The notes below the pieces were generated by a model that had not been told where the DNA came from, did no database searches, and was given only the letters and a program-made list of their open reading frames with translations. A DNA stretch of 64,000 bases. Origin: Staphylococcus phage Machias. Position 1 is the first letter of the stretch. Each line of letters opens with the position of its first letter. The DNA is taken from sequence record MW349128.1; one strand, written 5' to 3'. The position numbers were made by a program, and so were the translations under genes. Below are positions 955 to 51,883 of the stretch, piece after piece.

Positions 955-1578
955 ATGCCAAAAGAAATAGATTTAACTTCAGAAAAATTTAAAGATTATT
1001 CATATAACGAATTAAACTCAAGAGGTTCACAATTAAAAGATGGTAATTTAGATTTAGAATTTGAATTAGCTTCAGTTAAAAAATACTTTTTAGATAATGT
1101 AAATAAAAATGTAAGATACTTTAAAACTTATAAAGAAAAAATTAACTATTTAGTAGATAATGATTATATTGATGGAGATATGATCAAAAATTATGATTTT
1201 GAATTTATTAAAGGATTAATGAAAGAATTAATGGCTTATAAACATAGATTCACTCGTTTATTAGGAGCTAAAAAATTCTATGAACAGTATGCAATGAAAG
1301 ATGATGCAGGAGAAATCTTATTAGAACTATATGAAGATAGAATTTTATTTGTAGCTTTATATTTAGCTGACGGTGATGAAGAATTAGCTAGAAATATTGC
1401 TAATGAAATTATTACAGGAACTTTCCAACCTGCCACACCAACATTCCTTAATGCAGGTAGAGTACGTTCTGGAGAATTAGTAAGTTGTTTCTTATTAACT
1501 ATGGAAGACTCTTTATCATCTATTTATAGAAATATCTCTAATGTAGCTCAATTAAGTAAACGTGGTGGAGGCGTAGGT
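955..1578 (+). CDS. nrdE: Ribonucleotide reductase class Ib large subunit NrdE, exon 1 (ends after ...SKRGGGVG)
   Basis: ATP-cone-less class Ib N-terminus; conserved GGGVG block at ~1567-1578; the reading frame then runs into intron sequence (KLYTFH stop); exon ends on a U. Confidence 0.8.
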
Positions 1579-2560
1579 AAACTATATACGTTTCATTAAG
1601 ATTTTTGAAAATTATAAATCTTAAATGATACTAATGCCTACGAAAAATCGTGTGAACTCATACTAAAGGGGTGTCTAATTATAATAATTAGGCTAACGGT
1701 CATAGCAGTTAATTATGCTGGTAAGAGAGACTAAGTCCTATTAAATTGATAGGATAGAGTTAATACCGTGCCAAGCTTTATACTATTCATAGCTTCTAGA
1801 TGGGAGCTTGATAAAATGAAAGAAAATGAAATATTTAAACAATTAGAAGAATTTCCAGACTATGATTTTGGTAGTCATGGAACTATAATATCTTATAAGA
1901 CTAAAAATCCTAGAAAAATTATACCCAAGATTGATAAGAATGGTTATCATGAAGTAGGATTGAGAGATTATACAAATAAAAGAAAATACAGAAAAGCACA
2001 TAGACTTATTCTATTAGCACATAATTATATAGAAAATTCAGAAGATATGCAAGTAAATCATATAAATGGTAAACCAGATGACAATCGTTTATCTAATTTA
2101 GAATGGTGTACATCTAAAGAAAATATGAAACATGCATATAATATTCTTAGTAAAAATAAAGATAATAATAAATTTAAAATAGAAGTTTTGATTAAAGATA
2201 AAAATGATAATATTTTTAATTTTGAATCTATGAGTAAAGCTTCAGTATTTATCAAAAGTTCTGTTGGTGGTCTAAGATCTTTCTGGGTTAGAAGAAAAAG
2301 ACCTACAAATGAATTTATTAAATATAAAGATTATGATATAATGTTTAAGCCTAGTGAAAACTGGATTAAAGAATATGGAAAAGAAATTGTTTAAAGTTAT
2401 GAATAGTAAATTGAAGGTGTAGAGACTATCGAAAAGAAAGTTTAATTACTTTACTTAGTAGAGTAGGTCAGAGATTAGTACTGATCGAAGTGCATGGCAT
2501 ATTATTTTAAATAATATGAAGATATAGTCCACTCATTATAGAAATATAGTGGTTAAAGTG
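1579..2560 (+). mobile_element. Group I intron nrdE-I1 (~980 nt) carrying an HNH homing endonuclease ORF
   Basis: Interrupts NrdE between GGGVG and ISLSNLRA; R-like GTAGAGACTATCG (~2420) and S-like AAGATATAGTCC (~2518-2529) elements, P7 pairing GACTA/TAGTC; 3' end ...aaagtg| ~31 nt after S; internal HNH ORF. Confidence 0.7.
1768..2394 (+). CDS. Intron-encoded HNH (HNH_3 / AP2-like) homing endonuclease; true start may be M at ~1813
   Basis: HGTIISYKT...NGYHEVGL...KAHRLILLAHNYIENSEDMQVNHINGKPDDNRLSNLEWCTSKEN is a classic HNH motif of I-HmuI/I-TwoI-type phage endonucleases; lies inside the nrdE intron. Confidence 0.7.
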   Translation: MPSFILFIASRWELDKMKENEIFKQLEEFPDYDFGSHGTIISYKTKNPRKIIPKIDKNGYHEVGLRDYTNKRKYRKAHRLILLAHNYIENSEDMQVNHINGKPDDNRLSNLEWCTSKENMKHAYNILSKNKDNNKFKIEVLIKDKNDNIFNFESMSKASVFIKSSVGGLRSFWVRRKRPTNEFIKYKDYDIMFKPSENWIKEYGKEIV

Positions 2561-2683
2561 ATTAGTTTAAGTAATTTACGTGCTGACAATGATCCAATTA
2601 AAGGTGTTGAAGGTGCAGCTTCAGGTGTAGTTCCAGTTATGAAAGTATTTGAAGATACTTTATCATATGTAAATCAACTGGGT
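2561..2683 (+). CDS. nrdE: NrdE exon 2 (41 codons: ISLSNLRADNDPIKGVEGAASGVVPVMKVFEDTLSYVNQLG)
   Basis: Not in the ORF track; translation aligns with the universally conserved RNR large-subunit segment (NLSRLRA...GVVPFMKVFNDTARYVDQGG in E. coli NrdA); bridges exon 1 to exon 3 in frame. Confidence 0.75.
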
Positions 2684-2845
2684 TAATTTTAATGGCTCAG
2701 TATAAATATTGTTAATTGCTGGAAAAGTTTACAAGCTTAATCAGCATCAATCAAGATGATTGTTCAACGACTAAATATAATAATACTTATTAATAGTATA
2801 AGATATAGTCTAATCTATATGAATTTCATATAGTTAATATAAATG
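2684..2845 (+). mobile_element. Mini group I intron nrdE-I2 (~162 nt, ORF-less)
   Basis: P ATTAATTGCTGG (2712-2723), Q TTAATCAGCATC (2746-2757), R GTTCAACGACTAAAT (2762-2776), S AAGATATAGTCTAAT (2800-2814); ends ...ataaatG| at 2845; splices VNQLG to QRNGAGALYLNIFH. Confidence 0.7.
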
Positions 2846-4300
2846 CAACGTAATGGAGCTGGAGCTCTTTATTTAAATATTTTCCATAAAGATGTAGTAA
2901 AATTCTTAGATACTAAGAAAGAAAATGCTGATGAAAAAGTAAGATTAAAAACTATTTCATTAGGTTTAACAGTTCCAGATAAATATTATCAATTAGTTAA
3001 AGAAAATAAATCATTATATACATTTAGTCCATATGACATTAAAAAATATTACGATTTAGATTTCGATAGTATTGACTTTAATACTTATTATGATATCTTT
3101 GTAGATGATAAACGTATTAGTAAAGAGAAAATGTATGCTCGTGATTTAGAAACTACTATTAGTAAATTACAACAAGAATCTGGTTATCCTTATATCATTA
3201 ATATTGATACAGCTAATAGAGCTAATCCAATTAGTCATGGTACAATTAAAATGAGTAACTTGTGTAGCGAAATTCTACAAGTACAATACCCTTCATTAGT
3301 TGACGATAATCAACAATATGTTAAAACAGGAACAGACGTTTCATGTAATTTAGCTTCAACTATTGTACCTGGTTTAATGAAATCAAAAGACTTTGGTAAA
3401 TCAGTTGGAACTATGTTAAGAAGTTTAAATTCAGTAGCAGAAAAATCTAATATTGAAGCTGTACCTACAGTTAAGAAAGCTAATGATCTATTCCATACAG
3501 TTGGTTTAGGTGCAATGGGATTACACACTTATTTAGCTGAAAACCATATTCAATATGGATCAGAAGAATCTAAAGACTTTACTAATATTTATTTCATGTT
3601 ATTAAACTATTGGACATTAGTTGAATCAAATAAAATTGCTAAAGAAAAAGATGAGTCATTCTATTTATTTGAAAAAACTGAATATGCTGATGGCTCTTAC
3701 TTTGATAAACGTTATATTGGTAAAAATATTCAACCACGTACTGAAAAAGTTAAAGAATTATTTGAAGATATCTTTATTCCATCTGATAGTGATTGGGAAC
3801 AATTAAGAAATAATATTGTTATGGACGGTCTATACAATCAAAATAGATTAGCTGTAGCACCTAATGGTTCTATTGGTTATGTTAGAGAAGTATCACCTTC
3901 AATTCACCCTATTGTTGAATTAATTGAAGAGCGTGTAGAAGGTAAAACAGGTACTACTTTCTATCCAGCACCAGGTATTACACCAGACAACTTTGAATAC
4001 TTTAAGAAAAATGCATATCAACTGGATATGAGAGATATGATTGATTTATATTCAGAAGCTCAATATCATGTAGACCAAGGTATTTCAATGAATATTTACT
4101 TAATGAATGAACTTGATCCAGATATATATGAATGGAAAAAAGATTCTTTAGATAAAGAAACTACTACTCGTGATATTAGTAGATTACGTAACTATGCTTA
4201 TAGTAAAGGTATTAAATCTATGTATTATACTCGTATTTATTCACCAGACCATGATTCTCAATCTCAAGGAATAGTTGAATGTGAATCTTGTTCTATCTAA
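2846..4300 (+). CDS. nrdE: NrdE exon 3 (C-terminal ~485 aa)
   Basis: ALYLNIFHKDVVKFLDTKKEN..., NLCSEI (active-site Cys region), C-terminal CESCSI tail typical of class I large subunits. Confidence 0.85.
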   Translation, partial: QRNGAGALYLNIFHKDVVKFLDTKKENADEKVRLKTISLGLTVPDKYYQLVKENKSLYTFSPYDIKKYYDLDFDSIDFNTYYDIFVDDKRISKEKMYARDLETTISKLQQESGYPYIINIDTANRANPISHGTIKMSNLCSEILQVQYPSLVDDNQQYVKTGTDVSCNLASTIVPGLMKSKDFGKSVGTMLRSLNSVAEKSNIEAVPTVKKANDLFHTVGLGAMGLHTYLAENHIQYGSEESKDFTNIYFMLLNYWTLVESNKIAKEKDESFYLFEKTEYADGSYFDKRYIGKNIQPRTEKVKELFEDIFIPSDSDWEQLRNNIVMDGLYNQNRLAVAPNGSIGYVREVSPSIHPIVELIEERVEGKTGTTFYPAPGITPDNFEYFKKNAYQLDMRDMIDLYSEAQYHVDQGISMNIYLMNELDPDIYEWKKDSLDKETTTRDISRLRNYAYSKGIKSMYYTRIYSPDHDSQSQGIVECESCSI

Positions 4301-4554: not shown

Positions 4555-5628
4555 ATGACAACAAAAGGAAATTTCTTAACAAGTAGTAATGATAATAAAA
4601 GTTATTATAGTCCTATGAATTGGAATAAAGTAGACGATTATGTAGATTTAATGACATTTGATACTTTAGTATCACAATTTTGGACTTCAACACGTATTCC
4701 AGTTTCAAATGATATTAAAGCTTGGAATGGATTAGATGATAATACAAAAGATGTAGTTAATAAAGTATTTGCCGAATTAACTACTCTTGATACACTTCAA
4801 TCACGTGAAGGAGGAGATGCTTTACTTCATCATGCTCTTACACCTATGGAAGAAGATGTATTAAACAACATCAGATTTATGGAAAGTATTCACAATCGCT
4901 CGTATAGTACTATTTTTACTACTTTGTTAAATTCAAAACAAGTAGATGAAAACTTCAAATGGGTAGAAGAAAATGAACATGTTCAAAAGAAAATTAAATT
5001 GATTAATGAAGCTTATCAATCAGGTGATATCCTTAAAGTGCAAGCCGCTTCAGTATTCTTAGAGTCATTCTTATTTTATTCAGGTTTTTATACTCCATTA
5101 AGATTAAAAGATAGTCTTAAAAGTGTATTAGAAATCATTAAATTAATCTTAAGAGATGAGTCACTTCATGGTTCTTATATTGGATATAAATTTGGTAAAC
5201 GTTATGAAAAATTAGAAGAAAATGAACAAAACGAAATTAAAATGTGGGTAACTAATTTACTATTTGAACTTTATCAAGTTGAATGTGAATTCATTGAAGA
5301 AGTTTATACTGAAATTGGTTGGGCTGAAGATGTTAAAATATTCGCTCAATATAATGCCAATAAAGCTTTATTAAATCTTAAATTAGATCCTATTTTCGAA
5401 ACTACTGAAGAAGATGTAAATCCAATTGTAATGGCTGGATTAAAAACTTCTACTGGTAATCATGATTTCTTCTCTCAAGAAGGTAACGGATATCTTATTG
5501 GTAAAGCTGAAAATACTAAAGAAGAAGATTATGATTCAATTGATGTTAATGAACTTAATAAGAATATCATTGATTCATATAAAGATAAAGCAGATGATAG
5601 ATTTAGTCATAGTTACTATATAGATTAA
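4555..5628 (+). CDS. nrdF: Ribonucleotide reductase class Ib small subunit NrdF
   Basis: Di-iron ligand blocks (ESFLFYSGFY, LRDESLHGSY) and overall R2 architecture; RBS aaggagag. Confidence 0.85.
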   Translation: MTTKGNFLTSSNDNKSYYSPMNWNKVDDYVDLMTFDTLVSQFWTSTRIPVSNDIKAWNGLDDNTKDVVNKVFAELTTLDTLQSREGGDALLHHALTPMEEDVLNNIRFMESIHNRSYSTIFTTLLNSKQVDENFKWVEENEHVQKKIKLINEAYQSGDILKVQAASVFLESFLFYSGFYTPLRLKDSLKSVLEIIKLILRDESLHGSYIGYKFGKRYEKLEENEQNEIKMWVTNLLFELYQVECEFIEEVYTEIGWAEDVKIFAQYNANKALLNLKLDPIFETTEEDVNPIVMAGLKTSTGNHDFFSQEGNGYLIGKAENTKEEDYDSIDVNELNKNIIDSYKDKADDRFSHSYYID

Positions 5629-13814: not shown

Positions 13815-14005
13815 CCTGGTTTGTTAAATCTTGATTTTATATATTAAATATAAAGGCAAGACCTTGTATAAAATACACTTGGCTCAGTGACTAACGTATA
13901 AGGGAACCCTTATACTCCTTGTAAAGCTAATCGGACATTAGCTTATCACCCGTTTATCGTCTCCCGCTACCCGCAGGCGACTCTCATATCTTTTATTTTG
14001 TGAGA
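13815..14005 (-). ncRNA. Candidate TnpB guide (omega/right-end) RNA scaffold
   Basis: Only markedly GC-rich, stem-rich stretch in the region; stems read on the minus strand (as transcribed): AAGCTAAT/ATTAGCTT, GTATAAGGG/CCCTTATAC; lies directly 3' of the tnpB stop, where IS605 omega-RNAs map. Confidence 0.4.
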
Positions 14006-15199
14006 TTAAACATATTTTAAATCTAGAATATTTTTAGCTGCATTTAAATCTCTATCAAGAACTACATCACAATTAGGACAATCATGAGTATCATCACCTA
14101 AAACTAATTTCTCTTTATTAGTTCTAACATAACCACATGATGAACATGTCTGTGTAGTCTTTTTCTTAGTAATAATATTTAATTCATTATCATAAAAATT
14201 AGATTTAAATTTTAATTTTTCTAAAAAATCATACTTACCAAATCTTCTATTAGAACGTCTAAGATTTCTGAATCTATCAGATATTTTATGTGGATATGGT
14301 TCTATATTGATTACTTTATAATTTTTAACTAACCAATTAGTAATTTTGTCCCTATGATCTTCCAACATATCATATTCTCTATTATAAGACTTTCTTAATT
14401 GTTTTAAAAGTTTGTAATATGATTTTGAATAATATTTTTTTCTATCTAATTTAGATTTAATTTTTTCAGTTTTTCTTTCTTGTTTCCATAGAATATTCGG
14501 TATTTTAAATTCAAATACTTGACCGTTTGAGTCTACAGCAGCTAAAGGAGTTTTTATCCCCATATCAATACCAATTGAATAATTATTTTCTCTCTGTTTC
14601 TTATAATTGATTATCTCATAAGTTATAGAGATGTAGAATTTTTCATTCTTTCTGCTTATGGTGTAATATTTAAAATTAATATCGTTAGAGTTAATAAATT
14701 TTAAAGATTCCTTAGTTTTAATAACAAAAGGTTTAATTCCTTTCATTGCAGAAACTCTTATCCATTTTTTAGATAAAAATTTTACAGGTAAACTTAGTTT
14801 ATCTTTAACTATAAATCTAAATGAATCGTTAGAATATTTTTTCTTTTTAAATTTAGGTTTAAATTTATCACTATCTATATAATTTTTAGATTTTCTAGCT
14901 TTACTCTGCATTTCATAGTATTTAGAAAAAGTCTGATTTAGATCTTTTAAAGCTTCTTGTCTAACCATACTATTAACTTCATAAAGATAAGGATAATTTC
15001 CAGAATTTTGAATTTCGTTGTTTAATTTCTTTTGAAAATCAAATCCACTAAATTTCTTATCATCATCAATATTCTGATAATCTTCTAAAGCCATATTCCA
15101 TACTTTTCTTCTTACACCAAAGCATTTATTGAAATAATTCTTTTGGTCTTGATTTGGGTATATTCTAGTTTTGAAAGATTTAACTATTCCTTTTTTCAT
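14006..15199 (-). CDS. tnpB: TnpB (IS200/IS605-family OrfB) RNA-guided-nuclease-like protein, 397 aa
   Basis: RuvC-I GIDMGIKTPLAAV, zinc finger CSSCGY...CPNCD, RuvC-III DRDLNAAKNI; strong RBS aggaggtg; no tnpA present. Confidence 0.85.
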   Translation of the reverse strand: MKKGIVKSFKTRIYPNQDQKNYFNKCFGVRRKVWNMALEDYQNIDDDKKFSGFDFQKKLNNEIQNSGNYPYLYEVNSMVRQEALKDLNQTFSKYYEMQSKARKSKNYIDSDKFKPKFKKKKYSNDSFRFIVKDKLSLPVKFLSKKWIRVSAMKGIKPFVIKTKESLKFINSNDINFKYYTISRKNEKFYISITYEIINYKKQRENNYSIGIDMGIKTPLAAVDSNGQVFEFKIPNILWKQERKTEKIKSKLDRKKYYSKSYYKLLKQLRKSYNREYDMLEDHRDKITNWLVKNYKVINIEPYPHKISDRFRNLRRSNRRFGKYDFLEKLKFKSNFYDNELNIITKKKTTQTCSSCGYVRTNKEKLVLGDDTHDCPNCDVVLDRDLNAAKNILDLKYV

Positions 15200-15249
15200 T
15201 GTTTAATTTCACCTCCTAATCATATTATATAAATATGTTAGGAAATTCC

Positions 15250-15300
15250 TGATATGAATTTTTTATCAGTATTTTATACAATCTCTAAATTAGTAATTTA
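15250..15300 (-). repeat. IS605-type left-end subterminal hairpins
   Basis: Perfect palindromes CTGATAtgaattttttATCAG and CTCTAAATTagtAATTTAGAG just 5' of tnpB. Confidence 0.4.
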
Positions 15301-15304
15301 GAGC

Positions 15305-15410
15305 ACAGACTATATCATACTCATTGATATGAGTGAATATATTTAGTCGTTGGACAAGTCTTATTGACTTGATGCTGATTGAGATAATAATCTATTCCAG
15401 CAATTAATAT
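15305..15410 (-). mobile_element. Group I intron catalytic core (mini-intron family copy) on the minus strand
   Basis: Reverse complement contains ATTAATTGCTGG, AATCAGCATC, GTCCAACGACTAAAT, ATGATATAGTCT in the same order and spacing as the other mini-introns. Confidence 0.65.
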
Positions 15411-15442
15411 TCTTTGCTAATTAAAATTACTTTTAATAGGGA

Positions 15443-16354
15443 CTATTTGTGTGAATAATCCGGATAATACATTGATGCACCATCTAAATGTTCCATAAAG
15501 TTACCTACAATACCACCAATAACTGGCATATTTGCTACCATATCATTAATACTATCTTTAATAGTTCTAGTAATTTTACCTAAAATAGAAGCTCCACCAA
15601 TACGAGCCATTTCTTTTTGTTCTCGTATTTCTTGGTTTTTATTATTAACTTGAGAAGCAATATCAGATTGATTATATTCATGCATTGCAGATTCTGATAT
15701 ACTAGTTGATTTATCTGCATAGTAAGCTAGTCCATAGTTTTTATCATCTTGTAGAGATCCACCTAGATCAAATGATCCTTTTAAACCCATTGATGCATGA
15801 ACTTGAGAAGCCATAGTTTGTACGTATTTATAATATTCAGCCATTTTAGGTTCAAAGCTTATCATACGACCATCTTTAGTATTACCGATACCTACTAAAG
15901 ATAAACCAGAGTTTACTAATCTATCCATTCCTTCACCAAAACTCCATAATTTACCTTCTCCTGGTTTACCAAATAATTTACCATTTAATTTAGGCATACC
16001 CGGCATTATAAATACTAAAGGTAAATCTAATTCAAATGTTCTTTTATATATTCTTCTATTAGGATCATCTAAACTAGAATAGTACATAGGCATTCCAAAT
16101 ACATCTAGTTCACCTTTAACATTTCTTAATTGTTTTTTATCTTTAGCATTTTTATCTGTTAAATATTCAGTTGCTTGTCTTTGATTACCCAAAGCATCCA
16201 TAAAAGCACCAGTATCTTTTTGAGTAGGATCATATTCATGATAGTCATAATCACCTTTTTTCTCATCAGCTTGAGGTATTAAAGCCATATCATCATCTGC
16301 CACTTTTAAAGGTTCTTGTTCCTTAGACTCTTTTTTATCTTTTTCTTCAGCCAA
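15443..16354 (-). CDS. hypothetical protein (303 aa; TTG start) of the leftward virion module
   Basis: ORF from the track; its stop lies ~9 nt before the predicted 5' end of the IStron-like intron. Confidence 0.5.
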   Translation of the reverse strand: MAEEKDKKESKEQEPLKVADDDMALIPQADEKKGDYDYHEYDPTQKDTGAFMDALGNQRQATEYLTDKNAKDKKQLRNVKGELDVFGMPMYYSSLDDPNRRIYKRTFELDLPLVFIMPGMPKLNGKLFGKPGEGKLWSFGEGMDRLVNSGLSLVGIGNTKDGRMISFEPKMAEYYKYVQTMASQVHASMGLKGSFDLGGSLQDDKNYGLAYYADKSTSISESAMHEYNQSDIASQVNNKNQEIREQKEMARIGGASILGKITRTIKDSINDMVANMPVIGGIVGNFMEHLDGASMYYPDYSHK

Positions 16355-44406: not shown

Positions 44407-45430
44407 ATGACAACAGAATTAAAGAATAAAGAAGAAAGAAAAAGAGCTTTAACTGGATATTTAGAACAATTGGTATGGATGGTTCAAAAGAATAATCCTG
44501 ATTTTGATAAAGAAGAAATATTAAAAGAATGTAGAGAATTTGTAAAAGAAAATGTTAAACCTGTTATGACAGAGGTATCAGGTCAAGAAATGAATGTTGA
44601 TTCTTTATTACGTACAGTTATTAATTCAAATTTAATAGTAACTGGATCAGGTTCGATTTATCAAACACAATCACAAAGAAAAAATTTAAATGCAGAGATG
44701 TTAAAAGACTTCATTGATTCACGTAAAGTAGCTAAACATAATATGTTTATAAGTAAAGGTGTAGACGATGTTAAATATCATAAATATATGAATGAACAAA
44801 AAACAATTAAGATCTTGGCTAATAGTTACTATGGTGCTATGATACAAGGAAATAGTATTTTCTATGATCCTTATTCAGGACCTGCTATCACATATAGTGG
44901 TGTTGATATTGTTACGACTTCAGCAATAGCTTTAGAAAGATTTATAGGTAGTAAAATATTCTTTATGAATATTAGTGAGATTTATAATTATATCGTAAGA
45001 ATATGTCAAGAAGAATATAAAGATCATGATATTAAGATAAATTCAGTTCCTACTGATAATGAAATATTAAAAGGTTTATTGGATAACGTAGAATATAATT
45101 TCTCTGAAGATGAAGAAAATGATTTAAAAGAATTCTTTAGTAATTTAACTCAAGATGAGAAAAATAGAGTTTATTTTAAAAATAATCTTTATGGTTTATT
45201 AGATCACACTGATATATTTGATAATAAAATTAGTAAAATGACAGGTAGAGAAGATTTCTTAGATCCGAACGAACCACCTGAAGATATGATACCATTATTA
45301 GATGAATTATTTGATATATTAGAAGACTGGGTTATTTATAATTATCAAGATTACAATAGAATGTATAGAATGAATTATAAAAAACGTAGAAGTGTACTTA
45401 CAATCGATTATGATAACATGGTCGCTGCTT
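44407..45430 (+). CDS. Family-B DNA polymerase, C-terminal half, exon 1 (motif B to motif C); no exonuclease/motif-A region in this gene
   Basis: Kx3NSxYG motif KILANSYYGAM; following IFYDPYSGPAITYSGVD (compare RB69 FRYYDLRNATAITTFGQ); motif-C-like VLTIDYDNM at the very end; strong RBS taggaggt means it is an independent start. Confidence 0.65.
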
Positions 45431-45591
45431 AAAGTAATTTAAGTTGATTCACATTATTAATTGCTGAGAAAGTATTTATTAAATTAATCAGCATCAATCA
45501 ATATGATTGTTCAACGACTAAATATAATGATACTCATAAAGAGTATATGATATAGTCTATTTTATATTTAAAAATATAATATTAAAGACAG
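45431..45591 (+). mobile_element. Mini group I intron polB-IA (3' end uncertain: 45591, 45603 or 45612)
   Basis: 5' aaagtaatttaagttgat..., P TTAATTGCTGAG, Q TTAATCAGCATC, R GTTCAACGACTAAAT, S ATGATATAGTCTAT; the in-frame continuation has no stops. Confidence 0.6.
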
Positions 45592-45840
45592 ATAGTAACT
45601 TCGTACATTTAGATCCATTATATCAAAAAATGAAAGAAAAGAAACCTGAAGATTTCCCTATTGCAGAAAATGGTTTAGAAGATAAATTAGAACAACGTGT
45701 AGGTAATATATCTATTATTAACTATCAAATTACTAAATTGCTAGAATTATCTTATCATAGATTCTGTAAAGATTTAGGATTAGAAGATGAACATTTAGGT
45801 GTTATATCTATGAAAAATGAGTATGTAAATGCTCCAGTAT
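45592..45840 (+). CDS. DNA polymerase B exon 2 (~83 aa)
   Basis: Open frame ...LDPLYQKMKEKKPEDF...NEYVNAPV joining exon 1 and exon 3 in frame. Confidence 0.55.
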
Positions 45841-45996
45841 ACAGTAATGTGTATTAGTAAATATTATTAATTGCTGAGACAAAATAAAATTAATCAGCAT
45901 CTTCAAATAATGAAGTTCAACGACTAAATATAATAATTCTTAATAATAAAGAATATGATATAGTCTAGTCTTATATTTAAAATATAAGTATAAACG
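45841..45996 (+). mobile_element. Mini group I intron polB-IB
   Basis: 5' acagtaatgtgtatt..., full P/Q/R/S set; 3' end ...ataaacG|; the E2(t)+tt+E3 junction reads ...NAPV-F-LLDKQ in frame. Confidence 0.65.
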
Positions 45997-46697
45997 TTTT
46001 ACTTGACAAACAGTTAACAACAGATAAAAAGAAAACTTATGCTTCATCAGTAATTCAACAAGAGGGTAATTTAGTTCAACCACCAGACTTAGATGTTAAA
46101 GGTATGGCTATTAGAAAAGTTAATACTAATAAACGTATTAGAGAATTATTTACTGAAATATTACAAAAAGATATCTTAGAAAATAAAACTGGAATTGATA
46201 GAATTGGAATTATACGTAAATATAAAGAAATTGAAGAAATGATTAAAAAATCATTAGAGAATGGTGATATTGAATTCTTAAAACCTGGTAAAGCTAATAA
46301 CGCAGAAGTATATAAAGATCCTTATACACAAATGAATTATAGAGCAGCTTTATCATGGAATTTAATGTATCCAGATAAAGAAATATCTCTTCCAGCAAAT
46401 ATCTTAATGGTTAAATTAAATATTAAATCATTTGGAGATATTAAGGATAAAGTTGATGATGAAGAATTATTAGATAAATTTAGAGAAGTATTTAGAAACG
46501 AAAGATTAGTTAAAAATGGAATGAATGTAATTGCAGTTGAAGGTAATACAATTCCTGAAGAATTTAGACCTTTTATTGATTATGATTCAATGATAGAAGA
46601 TCATATTAAACCAGGTAAAGATATTATTGAATCTATTGGAGTTAAAGTGTTAGAATCTTCAAATAGTTCTTTCGTATCAAATATGGTTAAATTTTAA
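45997..46697 (+). CDS. DNA polymerase B exon 3 (C-terminal thumb; KGxxxRK = KKRY-like motif)
   Basis: ...PPDLDVKGMAIRKVNTNKR... in the same frame as the track ORF 46104-46697, open upstream to the splice site. Confidence 0.6.
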
Positions 46698-49805: not shown

Positions 49806-50979
49806 ATGAAAGTAGATATGATAGATATTGAACAAGTCATAACTGATACAAATGCTAAAGAAGTAACCAATCCTGTATTTTTCGATTCAGGTATACTACC
49901 AAAAGAAGATGGTTTATTTTCATATGATATATTTGGTTTAATAGGTACTCCTGAAAGAAAAACCAATTTAGGTTGGATTAATTTAAAGGATAAATACCTT
50001 AATCCGGTGGCTTATAAAGCATTAAAAGATTTAGATAAAAATATTGAACTATGTATTCAGGGTTCAGAGTATTTTAAAGTAGAAAAAGGTCAATTAGTTC
50101 CTTCAGAAGATGGAGATACTGGACTGAATTTCTTATATGAAGTATTTGATGATTTAAAATTTAGAAAGAATGATTCTCGTATTAGATCTGAAAAAATTGA
50201 TATGATTAAAAATACAGATAAGCAAAAAATATTTGTAGATAAATGGCTAGTAATACCTGCTTTTTATAGAGACTTTAATCCTAATGAAACTTCAGGAGAA
50301 ATTCAAGATACTGAAGAAGTTAATAATATGTATTCTTCTATTATACGTTCTGTAGATGCTATTAGTTTTAATTCTTTTGGTTTTATTGCTAACAGTACTA
50401 AATATAATATACAAAATACATTATTTGAAATATATCAGAAATTTACTTCAGGAGAATTATCAGGTAAAACTGGTTTTATGCAAAAACGTATATTGGGTAA
50501 AACAGTAGATAATAGTACTCGTGCAGTTATTTCTTCACCTAAAATTAATTCGAATAGATGGGATGAAATGCAGATAGAGTTTGGTGAGTTAGGTGTACCA
50601 TTAACTCAATTAGTTACCTTATTTTTACCATTCTTTAATAAGTATATAATTGATTTTATTGAACTTCATAAAGATGCTTTCCAAACAGCTACTGGAAATG
50701 ATGAGAAAGAATTATCATTAGAAGAAGTGTATGAACAATTCGATGATAAATCTATTAAGAATATGCTAGAATTCTTTATTAAAGATCCTAATGAAAGATT
50801 TAGTCCTATATATGTAAATGATAGAGAAGGTAAACGCCATAAAGTTAAATTATTTGAAAAAACTTTGGGTAGAGATTTTACTGTAATTGATTTACTTTAT
50901 ATTGCTGCAACCGAAATAGTAGAAGATAAGCATGTTATGTATTCAAGATATCCGATTAATAAAATGGTCGCTGCTTAAA
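49806..50979 (+). CDS. Multisubunit RNA polymerase beta-prime-like subunit (N-terminal half), exon 1
   Basis: LPKEDGLFSYDIFG (compare KPERDGLFCERIFGP), GWINLKDKYLNPV (compare GHIELASPTAHIW), KRILGKTVDNSTRAVISSP (compare GKRVDYSGRSVIVVGP); no Zn finger, as in phiKZ/AR9-type phage RNAPs. Confidence 0.7.
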
Positions 50980-51140
50980 GTGATTTAAGTTGATAAACAT
51001 TGTTAATTGCTGAAATACTATTAATAAAGTTAATCAGCATCAATTAAATATAATTGTTCAACGACTAAATGCAATGATACTATTTAATAGTATATAATAT
51101 AGTCTAATTTATATAATACTTATATAAATATAATAAATGC
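50980..51140 (+). mobile_element. Mini group I intron rpoC'-IC (3' end uncertain, 51139-51156)
   Basis: 5' aaagtgatttaagttgat..., P/Q/R/S set, S at ~51100-51108, ...ataaatG at 51139. Confidence 0.6.
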
Positions 51141-51341
51141 GAAAATTTCTTGAACGTAGCACCTGCTAAAATTAAAATATTAACTACTGTTGATACTATT
51201 CCAGAAATAATTTTAGATGATATAGTATTAAAAGATTACCCTAAAGTAGTAAGAGAGTATCCTGTTGATGAAGATATTTTCTTAGATACTGCAATCATAC
51301 ACAATTCATATGCTCAAGCACTTGGTGCAGATTTTGATGGC
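51141..51341 (+). CDS. beta-prime-like exon 2, ending in ...HNSYAQALGADFDG (first part of the catalytic NADFDGD motif)
   Basis: ADFDG followed by an intron; the frame is open back to ~51120. Confidence 0.6.
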
Positions 51342-51491
51342 AAAATTTTATATTACCATCATTAAATAATATTAATTGCTGGAAAATCTAATAAGATAAT
51401 CAGCATCAACTTAATAAAAGTTGTTCAACGACTAAATATATTACTAAAGAAGATATAGTCTAATTATATGTAAATACATGTATATAAAATG
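51342..51491 (+). mobile_element. Mini group I intron rpoC'-ID, splitting the DFDG|D catalytic motif
   Basis: P ATTAATTGCTGG 51372, Q, R GTTCAACGACTAAAT, S AAGATATAGTCTAAT ~51450-51464; ends ...aaaatG| 51491; next exon begins DMISIRSLWSVEA (compare [14 protein letters not shown]). Confidence 0.65.
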
Positions 51492-51617
51492 GATATGATT
51501 TCAATACGCTCTTTATGGTCTGTAGAAGCAAATAAAGAAGCTGATAAACTTATTAATAAGAAAACTAATTACTTAAACTACACAGGAAATAGTATACGTG
51601 GAGTTGGTAATGAGAGT
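51492..51617 (+). CDS. beta-prime-like exon 3 (42 codons DMISIRSLWSVEANKEADKLINKKTNYLNYTGNSIRGVGNES)
   Basis: Completes the NADFDGD-like motif and aligns with the segment after it in bacterial beta-prime; not in the ORF track (<60 aa). Confidence 0.6.
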
Positions 51618-51759
51618 AAGTTTGTATGCTCTCAATAAATTTCATTAATTGCTGGAAAAACAAAATTAATCAGCATCAACTTAATAAAAGTTGTTCAACG
51701 ACTAAATATGAAAATGATTTAAATATCATAAGATATAGTCTAATTATCATAAATATATG
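51618..51759 (+). mobile_element. Mini group I intron rpoC'-IE
   Basis: 5' aagtttgtatgctc..., P AATTGCTGG 51647-51655, Q, R, S ~51730-51744, ...aaatatatG|. Confidence 0.55.
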
Positions 51760-51792
51760 GTACAAGCTTTATATTCTTTAACTAAAGAATAA
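51760..51792 (+). CDS. beta-prime-like terminal mini-exon (VQALYSLTKE-stop); boundary tentative
   Basis: In frame with exon 3; resembles ...AERLYRSGLA; followed by a terminator. Confidence 0.35.
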   Translation, partial: VQALYSLTKE

Positions 51793-51803: not shown

Positions 51804-51840
51804 AGAGTAACGGTCTAATATAGATCGTTACTCTTATTAT
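51804..51840 (+). terminator. Terminator hairpin after the split beta-prime gene
   Basis: AGAGTAACG-gtctaatatagat-CGTTACTCT then TTATTAT. Confidence 0.55.
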
Positions 51841-51866: not shown

Positions 51867-51883
51867 AAATATATATTATAAAA
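51867..51883 (+). promoter_or_regulatory. Promoter-like motif AAATATATATTATAAAA (copy 3), heading the paralog array
   Basis: Exact 17-mer 30 nt upstream of the 51913 start. Confidence 0.45.

Follow-up and report, generated by a model that had tools for sequence, protein, structure and literature searches.

How a phage can obtain a working RNA polymerase (RNAP) subunit from a gene that stands in pieces, with one break inside the catalytic motif, is the question raised by a locus of Staphylococcus phage Machias (sequence record MW349128.1). The locus occupies positions 49806-51792 of the 64,000-nucleotide (nt) stretch of DNA analysed here, hereafter called the window, and comprises three separate open reading frames (ORFs) divided by short intervening stretches. 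An original prediction, made from the letters alone, had described it as a gene for a beta'-like subunit fragmented by three small group I introns. The ORFs themselves, the blocks shared by the intervening stretches and the alignment to an uninterrupted allele bear out this description. In our view, the locus is, with high probability, a virion RNAP beta'-N gene, orthologous to AR9 g145 and MarsHill gp113, in which three miniaturised group I introns lacking endonucleases are inserted.

The interrupted gene and its protein

Exon boundaries were set by alignment to the uninterrupted allele of phage S6 (LC680885, 64222-65733; 1512 nt, 503 amino acids). Against this allele the window shows three clean insertions, on either side of which the two sequences align base for base (Table 1). 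The first junction falls within an Ile codon (...RYPI/ENF..., slashes marking the junctions here and below), the second separates DFDG from D, and the third reads ...GNES/VQALYSLTKE. For intron 1, which contains no endonuclease ORF, a register placed 1 nt rightward fits the protein equally well, as ATT and ATC both encode Ile, and only the chosen register gives a terminal G. In the unspliced RNA an in-frame stop lies 6-7 codons into every intron; specifically, the frame of exon 1 adds 7 codons (...INKMVAA, stop). Once joined, the four exons amount to 1512 nt and encode 503 amino acids, which align to the S6 protein without gaps and with 428/503 identities (85%). At the DNA level, Staphylococcus phage vB_StaM_PB50 (OR770614) matches positions 49806-51792 with 99.0% identity, AH12 with 93%, and MarsHill, LY01, Madawaska, PALS_2, SA1, S6 and UFV_DC4 with 82-84%; to the Bacillus phages AR9 and PBS1 the similarity is distant.

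The beta' nature of the product is supported by several comparisons. PHROG 2986 is a full-length match of the spliced protein (residues 1-499 covered, E 2.8e-109), whose residues 2-247 match the beta'-N chain 7S00_d of the AR9 non-virion RNAP (7S00/7S01) with an E value of 2e-12. Bacterial beta' aligns around the NADFDGD motif, residues 428-502 corresponding to residues 438-515 of E. coli. Moreover, AR9 g145, annotated as 'virion RNAP subunit, beta' N-terminus', aligns at full length with 43-51% identity over all the exons, so that the comparison proposed as a check by the original prediction does find 49806-50956 to be beta'-like. The Pfam domain RNA_pol_Rpb1_2 is found in the spliced protein with 25.5 bits, just above the cut-off of 25.3, at residues 437-473, a region spanning the exon 2/3 junction; the three unspliced fragments gave zero Pfam matches. 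In other words, the catalytic domain of beta' reaches the Pfam threshold only in the spliced protein, which supports the joining of the exons. The catalytic loop GADFDGD, too, is complete only once exons 2 and 3 are joined, and the predicted spliced protein contains the peptide ...ALGADFDGDMISIR... The presence of the predicted subunit in the virion and its activity in transcription would follow, by analogy, from the annotations of AR9 and MarsHill only.

Further details of the original prediction can be placed beside these results. It had noted the absence of the beta' Zn finger, and the spliced protein, having a single cysteine, indeed lacks it. The proposed cut within DFDG/D coincides with intron 2, and the tiny terminal exon and the terminator proposed downstream of it correspond to exon 4 and to the hairpin that follows; the scan of the region found 3 terminator-like sites where 0.3 would be expected. 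The view that the C-terminal half of beta' is encoded elsewhere agrees with the end of the protein, which corresponds to about residue 515 of the beta' of E. coli, and with published genes for N, mid and C portions of beta'. The AR9-type promoter motif, on the other hand, loses its value as evidence: TATATTAT does occur at 51872-51879, yet the window contains 38 copies where 37.1 are expected, which is chance level.

A reduced group I core in the three introns

The three intervening stretches have long conserved blocks in common (AATTGCTG..., TAATCAGCATCAA, GTTCAACGACTAAAT and ATATAGTC). In a local scan with the Rfam group I model RF00028 they scored 30.3 bits (intron 2), 27.8 bits (intron 3) and 22.4 bits (intron 1), with E values of 1.5e-5, 8e-5 and 3.4e-3, respectively, and the alignments contain the conserved elements P, Q, R and S (AAUUGCUGGAAA, AAUCAGCA, GUUCAACGACUAAA and AAGAUAUAGUC). 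The Rfam check suggested by the original prediction thus gives a match in the local scan, but one that stays under the gathering score of the family, which is 50 bits. A covariance model, R1, built from 17 intron copies, scores introns 1, 2 and 3 at 97.8, 99.4 and 107.1 bits. One RF00028 alignment that placed P1 inside exon 2 was rejected in favour of the junction defined by S6, as it would remove the DFDG motif.

Covariation was analysed in 17 intron copies from the window, AH12, LY01 and MarsHill, aligned with MAFFT without structural guidance. In this alignment P3, P4, P6, P7 and P8 are 98.1% paired, and 15/29 pairs are changed on both sides (58 cells), with compensatory changes in 5 of the 6 pairs of P3. 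None of 500 shuffles was as good (0/500), and sliding the 3' partners lowered pairing to 25-50%. When hairpin segments were folded one by one, P6 formed in every copy and P8 in most, P5 being variable or absent. P8 is deleted, with only CUAAAGAAGA or CUAAGAAGA left in its place, in intron 2 of the window, in its AH12 orthologue and in the site-3 introns of MarsHill and LY01; in intron 2 the segment consists of CUAAAGAAGA only and does not fold. Folding of whole introns recovers P1, P4, P5, P6, P7, P8 and P9, with z-scores of -2.6, -1.5 and -2.75 for introns 1, 2 and 3. Intron 1 possesses a P2 hairpin (50973-50990) in addition to the P3-P9 core, intron 2 has no P2, and intron 3 is without P2, has essentially no P5 stem and carries a very short P9. 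Taken together, the core elements, the covariation, the pairing of guide and 5' exon, the terminal G and the exact absence from S6 agree with one another and support the group I identity that the original prediction had assigned.

The core of intron 2 (51364-51464; without P8, and with P3 formed by TAAUAU/AUAUUA) is nearer to the site-3 introns of MarsHill (L003 4636-4737) and LY01 than to the site-2 introns of these phages, with which its guide region nevertheless shares homology. This mosaic likeness suggests a recombination between intron copies.

Splice sites and the C·A pair of intron 2

In introns 1 and 3 the splice sites are of the canonical kind. The P1 of intron 1 pairs exon CGAU with the guide GUCG (50967-50970), and that of intron 3 pairs exon GAGAGU with the guide GCUCUC (51628-51633), both with U·G at the splice site; intron 3 also has a P10, GUACAAG/UUUGUAU (51621-51627). 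In intron 2, exon UGAUGGC pairs with the guide ACCAUCA (51355-51361), the start of the 3' exon GAUAU forms P10 with AUAUU (51350-51354), and the splice-site pair is C51341·A51355 and not U·G. Hence, the suspicion that the 5' splice site of this intron follows C or G instead of U was well founded, the base being C. A U·G pair is impossible in intron 2, as there is no G within its first 36 nt. P1 is recovered in the computed folds.

The splice-site U·G pair is critical and highly conserved in group I introns (PMC4227781), and both its bases are upper-case in the RF00028 consensus. It is present in introns 1 and 3 and in the further four mini-introns described below, which have U at position -1 facing G and a terminal G; intron 2 is the sole exception among the seven. 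For intron 2 alone, the C51341·A51355 pair weakens the case for a canonical group I splice site.

The origin of this pair can be followed among relatives. In MarsHill, LY01 and Madawaska, the intron at site 2 pairs exon GACGGU with the guide GCCGU, with U·G, and aligns column for column with that of the window, whereas in the window, PB50 and AH12 the exon reads GAUGGC and the guide ACCAUC. From one lineage to the other, C-G is therefore replaced by U-A at position -4 and U·G by C·A at position -1; a five-sequence count of the pairs gives CG:3/UA:2 and UG:3/other:2, with C·A scored as unpaired. PB50 has the identical C and A, and so does AH12, which is more divergent; both are isolated, propagating phages. 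As these viable phages have the same bases, the pair is not a sequencing error, and since they propagate, the gene must work. C·G at the 5' splice site has reportedly been described in natural group I introns, and C·A substitutions in the Tetrahymena ribozyme are said to be functional in vitro. In such an in vitro substitution the C·A pair is reported to keep a wobble geometry. Like intron 2, these introns and constructs have C in place of U before the cleavage site; the C·A pair of intron 2 differs in being natural, in being kept in three phage genomes and in having arisen together with a second, compensatory change in P1.

Proposed splicing pathway and alternative explanations

According to the mechanism proposed here, each intron would fold after transcription into a reduced group I core made of P1, P3, P4, (P5), P6, P7, (P8) and P9. 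A guide near the 5' end of the intron would form P1 with the last 4-7 nt of the 5' exon, and P10 with the first bases of the 3' exon. Free guanosine could then attack the 5' splice site, and the freed exon would in turn attack just past the terminal G of the intron. With all three introns out, the message would encode the 503-amino-acid protein with its catalytic loop ADFDGD. Because new virions require this polymerase, the phage needs the three introns to be removed. That they are actually spliced is very likely, because the phages are viable; whether they splice without help is uncertain.

Several observations weigh against a locus of three genuine group I introns, and in particular against self-sufficient ones. 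All three beta' introns fall short of the Rfam gathering score (22-30 bits against 50). Their folds are weak, at 19-22% GC, with the z-score of intron 2 lowest in magnitude. Intron 2 lacks both P8, normally part of the catalytic core, and the U·G pair, and given these losses it might need a protein or other helper. At site 2, only two lineages contribute to the covariation of P1, which by itself does not reach statistical significance. Finally, the splicing of the three introns is something that we infer from sequence, and this holds even more for splicing that is unaided.

A reading that takes these weaknesses into account is that the introns are removed in vivo but not autonomously, their folding needing a phage or host protein, an RNA chaperone or low temperature. 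We consider this less likely than not. It draws on the very low stability just described and on the reduced architecture of the introns, which lack P2 and P5 extensions, have a weak P9 and in some copies miss P5 and P8, as well as on the RF00028 scores under threshold. In addition, related phages form no plaques at 37 °C (Korn et al.), which fits a thermolabile step without demonstrating one. Opposed to it are the four conserved core elements, which are intact, the strict maintenance of P3, P4, P6 and P7, and the lack of any maturase-like ORF in or beside the three introns. Engineered sunY derivatives of ~180 nt are active, which also counts against a dependence on helpers.

Two other alternatives concern splicing itself. 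It could be imagined that intron 2 is cut elsewhere than after C51341, in another register (for example GG/...U/G) or at a cryptic U, so that no C·A pair is involved. A shift of 1 nt leftward would also yield DFDGD (GG + G GAT), and U·G is almost universal (PMC4227781; RF00028 consensus). No third register preserves DFDGD, however, and in the shifted one the intron would end in U and not in G; the stretch without G at the start of intron 2 offers nothing to face any U. Moreover, A51355 falls exactly at the wobble G of the MarsHill and LY01 guides, and P10 (GAUAU/AUAUU) adjoins it; we consider such a displaced cut very unlikely. Even less credible, to the point of being nearly negligible, is the idea that the locus consists of pseudogenised or independently translated fragments, the repeats being non-splicing remnants. 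In its favour, separate coding sequences (CDSs) are annotated in PB50 and AH12, those of PB50 being three 'viral RNA polymerase beta-prime subunit' entries that equal the three ORFs of Table 1; an ATG happens to precede exon 3, and exon 2 is readable from a TTG. The annotated pieces, however, would divide the Asp triad between two polypeptides, and exon 4 (33 nt) lies outside all three annotated CDSs and is yet 97% conserved with S6. Furthermore, over codons 384-503 (exons 2-4) the window and S6 differ by 38 synonymous and 11 non-synonymous codons, which indicates that the downstream pieces are under purifying selection and are not decaying. The guides, in addition, co-vary with the exons, and the insertions are exact relative to S6. 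Our preferred reading therefore remains that of a single beta'-N gene restored by splicing.

The mini-intron family and other introns of the window

The R1 model recognizes seven members of the family in the window, three of them in the beta' gene (Table 1). A BLAST search with intron 2 found the family in five Staphylococcus jumbo phages only, at 20 places in PB50, 29 in AH12, 33 in LY01, 12 in Madawaska and 9 in MarsHill, and found none in S6, PALS_2, SA1 and UFV_DC4. A pattern scan for the family core in 185,579 bacterial and archaeal genomes (GTDB representatives) gave zero matches. In IMG/VR there is one distant copy, which scores 65.9 bits with R1 and lies on an unrelated 17.8-kb viral contig (IMGVR_UViG_2826062648_000001; L010 5810-5913, minus strand).

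Table 1. Features of the Machias window; positions are those of the 64,000-nt stretch
Feature	Position	Length	Strand	Remarks
ORF	49806-50978	390 amino acids	+	
ORF	51150-51365		+	ends ...GADFDGKILYYHH, stop
ORF	51489-51638		+	starts MDMISIRSLWSVEA...
Exon 1	49806-50956	1151 nt	+	codons 1-383 and 2 nt of Ile384; collinear with S6 CDS nt 1-1152
Intron 1	50957-51139	183 nt	+	20% GC; missing in S6; last base G51139
Exon 2	51140-51341	202 nt	+	...ENFLNVAPAK...AQALGADFDG; last codon GGC (Gly); S6 nt 1153-1353
Intron 2	51342-51491	150 nt	+	19% GC; phase 0, between DFDG and D; missing in S6; last base G51491
Exon 3	51492-51617	126 nt	+	DMISIRSLWSVEANKEADKLINKKTNYLNYTGNSIRGVGNES; S6 nt 1354-1478
Intron 3	51618-51759	142 nt	+	22% GC; missing in S6; last base G51759
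Exon 4	51760-51792	33 nt with stop	+	VQALYSLTKE; terminal micro-exon; 97% identity to S6 nt 1479-1512
Terminator-like hairpin	51804-51834		+	14 pairs, 5 G-C, then TATTATATTG
Mini intron, ribonucleotide reductase alpha gene	2684-2845	162 nt	+	S6 allele boundaries
Mini core, IStron-like element	15304-15415		-	best R1 score, 120 bits; PB50 allele boundaries
Mini intron, family-B DNA polymerase gene	45409-45587	179 nt	+	S6 allele boundaries
Mini intron, family-B DNA polymerase gene	45823-45996	174 nt	+	S6 allele boundaries

The gene for the family-B DNA polymerase is likewise in pieces (ORFs 44407-45432, 45630-45857 and 46104-46697), and its first mini intron, which cuts the catalytic ...LTID/TDS..., has the guide (GUCG) and the 5' region in common with intron 1 of the beta' gene. 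The ribonucleotide reductase alpha gene (955-4300, plus strand) has two introns, the larger of which, at ~1579-2560 (edges placed by eye), contains an HNH endonuclease ORF (1768-2394); at the site of its mini intron the window reads GGT, with U at -1, and the intron-less S6 reads GGG.

The remaining member belongs to an IStron-like element of 1642 nt on the minus strand (13816-15457), which lies within the gene for a virion protein. CCGGAU precedes its 5' splice site, and the guide is AGUCC; then come the mini group I core (15415-15304), a TnpB ORF of 397 amino acids (15199-14006; Pfam OrfB_IS605, Cas12f1-like_TNB and HTH_OrfB_IS605) and a GC-richer tail of ~190 nt with ...CCAG at its end. The PB50 gene (97.5% identity) lacks precisely this element, as do AH12, S6 and MarsHill, whereas LY01 has a related copy at another place. 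Removal of the element restores ...MYYPD/VWMNSTF... Rfam gave no match in the IStron region. IStrons are known in Clostridium botulinum phages, and Staphylococcus appears nowhere in the text of that survey (PMC4227781).

In whole-window Rfam scans there was no match at the gathering score and none at E<=0.1; accordingly, none of the eight group I introns of the window reaches the former and none appears at the latter. Being invisible to Rfam, such introns will lead standard pipelines to call their host genes as fragments.

Significance

At the level of the gene, the locus is another case of a published kind, and its novelty is less than the original prediction assumed, because intron-split virion RNAP beta'-N genes have been published for AR9, MarsHill and Madawaska. 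It adds one more example of mobile introns crowding into an essential polymerase gene of a phage, and there into its best-conserved region. In the literature we found no description of so small an intron size, of a P8-less core or of a natural C·A splice pair. The minimum usually quoted for a group I intron is ~200 nt.

On a broader reading, introns of 142-183 nt would be among the smallest natural self-splicing ones and would belong to a multi-copy, endonuclease-less family that tolerates the loss of P2, P5 and P8, with intron 2 as a natural C·A ribozyme and with a possible link to IStrons. We put this forward tentatively, as a combination whose chances are somewhat less than even. If it were true, intron 2 would be a natural ribozyme cleaving at C·A, a state reached via compensatory changes of exon and guide, and the IStron link would offer a route of spreading to introns without endonucleases, the IStron core being the best-scoring member of the family. 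The introns would then represent natural minimal group I ribozymes unseen by standard Rfam annotation. The P8-less member tests how far the core can be reduced; against the natural swap of U·G for C·A, the in vitro findings of several decades on splice-site recognition could be checked, and a C·A+ wobble predicts a splicing that depends on pH. For these reasons the C·A pair, the P8-less core and the small size merit a bench test. In addition, the copy number of the family, tens per genome in some relatives and none in S6-like phages, suits the study of how endonuclease-less introns spread. A practical consequence concerns databases, as the annotations of PB50, AH12 and LY01 split the beta' gene into meaningless fragments.

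Comparison with known systems

The closest known systems are found in the MarsHill-like phages, for which intron-disrupted RNAP genes and N, mid and C genes for beta' have been described (Korn et al., bioRxiv 10.1101/2020.12.14.422802; J Virol 2021). The viral RNAP beta'-N genes gp113 of MarsHill and gp113 of Madawaska are orthologous, intron-joined CDSs with ~82% DNA identity to the locus of Machias. MarsHill carries mini introns of the same family at the same sites 2 (DFDG/D) and 3, whereas its first intron lies 9 nt downstream of site 1, measures 1476 nt and has a homing endonuclease inside. The site-2 intron of Madawaska is 1472 nt long, with an endonuclease gene in the P1 loop. At site 2 both phages have U·G, unlike the C·A of the window.

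Other relatives show variations of the same arrangement. Even the curated CDS of MarsHill (three joined pieces, ending at position 4637 of its locus, L003) apparently runs into the site-3 intron (L003 4610-4752, 143 nt), and the annotation seems to leave out both this intron and the 33-nt last exon (L003 4753-4786), which is conserved with S6. In AH12 (L004 2290-2690) a fourth intron leaves a 15-nt exon, GCTGACTTTGATGGC (ADFDG), and the 5' splice site of this extra intron seems to follow a C facing G (guide GUCAA). In LY01 (L005 2280-3070) three introns stand within ~40 nt and leave exons of ~15 and 9 nt, the latter being TTTGACGGT.

In the more distant AR9, the virion RNAP beta'-N gene reportedly has two introns. 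Specifically, g145 is joined from three pieces, and its two introns lie near the same two places (...RYPIEQY/NIYPSK and ...GGDYD/GDTVS); they are large and contain endonuclease genes, whereas the three beta' introns of Machias contain none. The intron in the catalytic motif of AR9 lies 3 nt upstream of site 2 of the window, after GAT (U at -1), and is therefore an independent insertion. According to PMC12350094, which gives the organisation of the gene in its Fig. 5A, one of the AR9 introns is of group II.

As to the introns themselves, a BLAST search of the phage collection gave no sequence similarity to the Staphylococcus phage Twort. The orf142 of Twort is said to be one gene with three group I introns and would thus resemble the locus described here in combining several related, endonuclease-less group I introns within one gene in a phage of Staphylococcus; its introns are reported to be ~250 nt long with a full core, compared with 142-183 nt in the beta' gene of Machias. 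With the td, nrdB and sunY introns of T4 (IA2-type) and with RF00028, the three beta' introns share P3, P4, P6, P7 and the core elements, as well as the guide, the terminal G and the early in-frame stop. They differ in extent: their 142-183 nt are set against a consensus of 253 positions in RF00028, and two model segments, 38 and 59 positions long, have shrunk in intron 2 to 15 nt and 2 nt, respectively.

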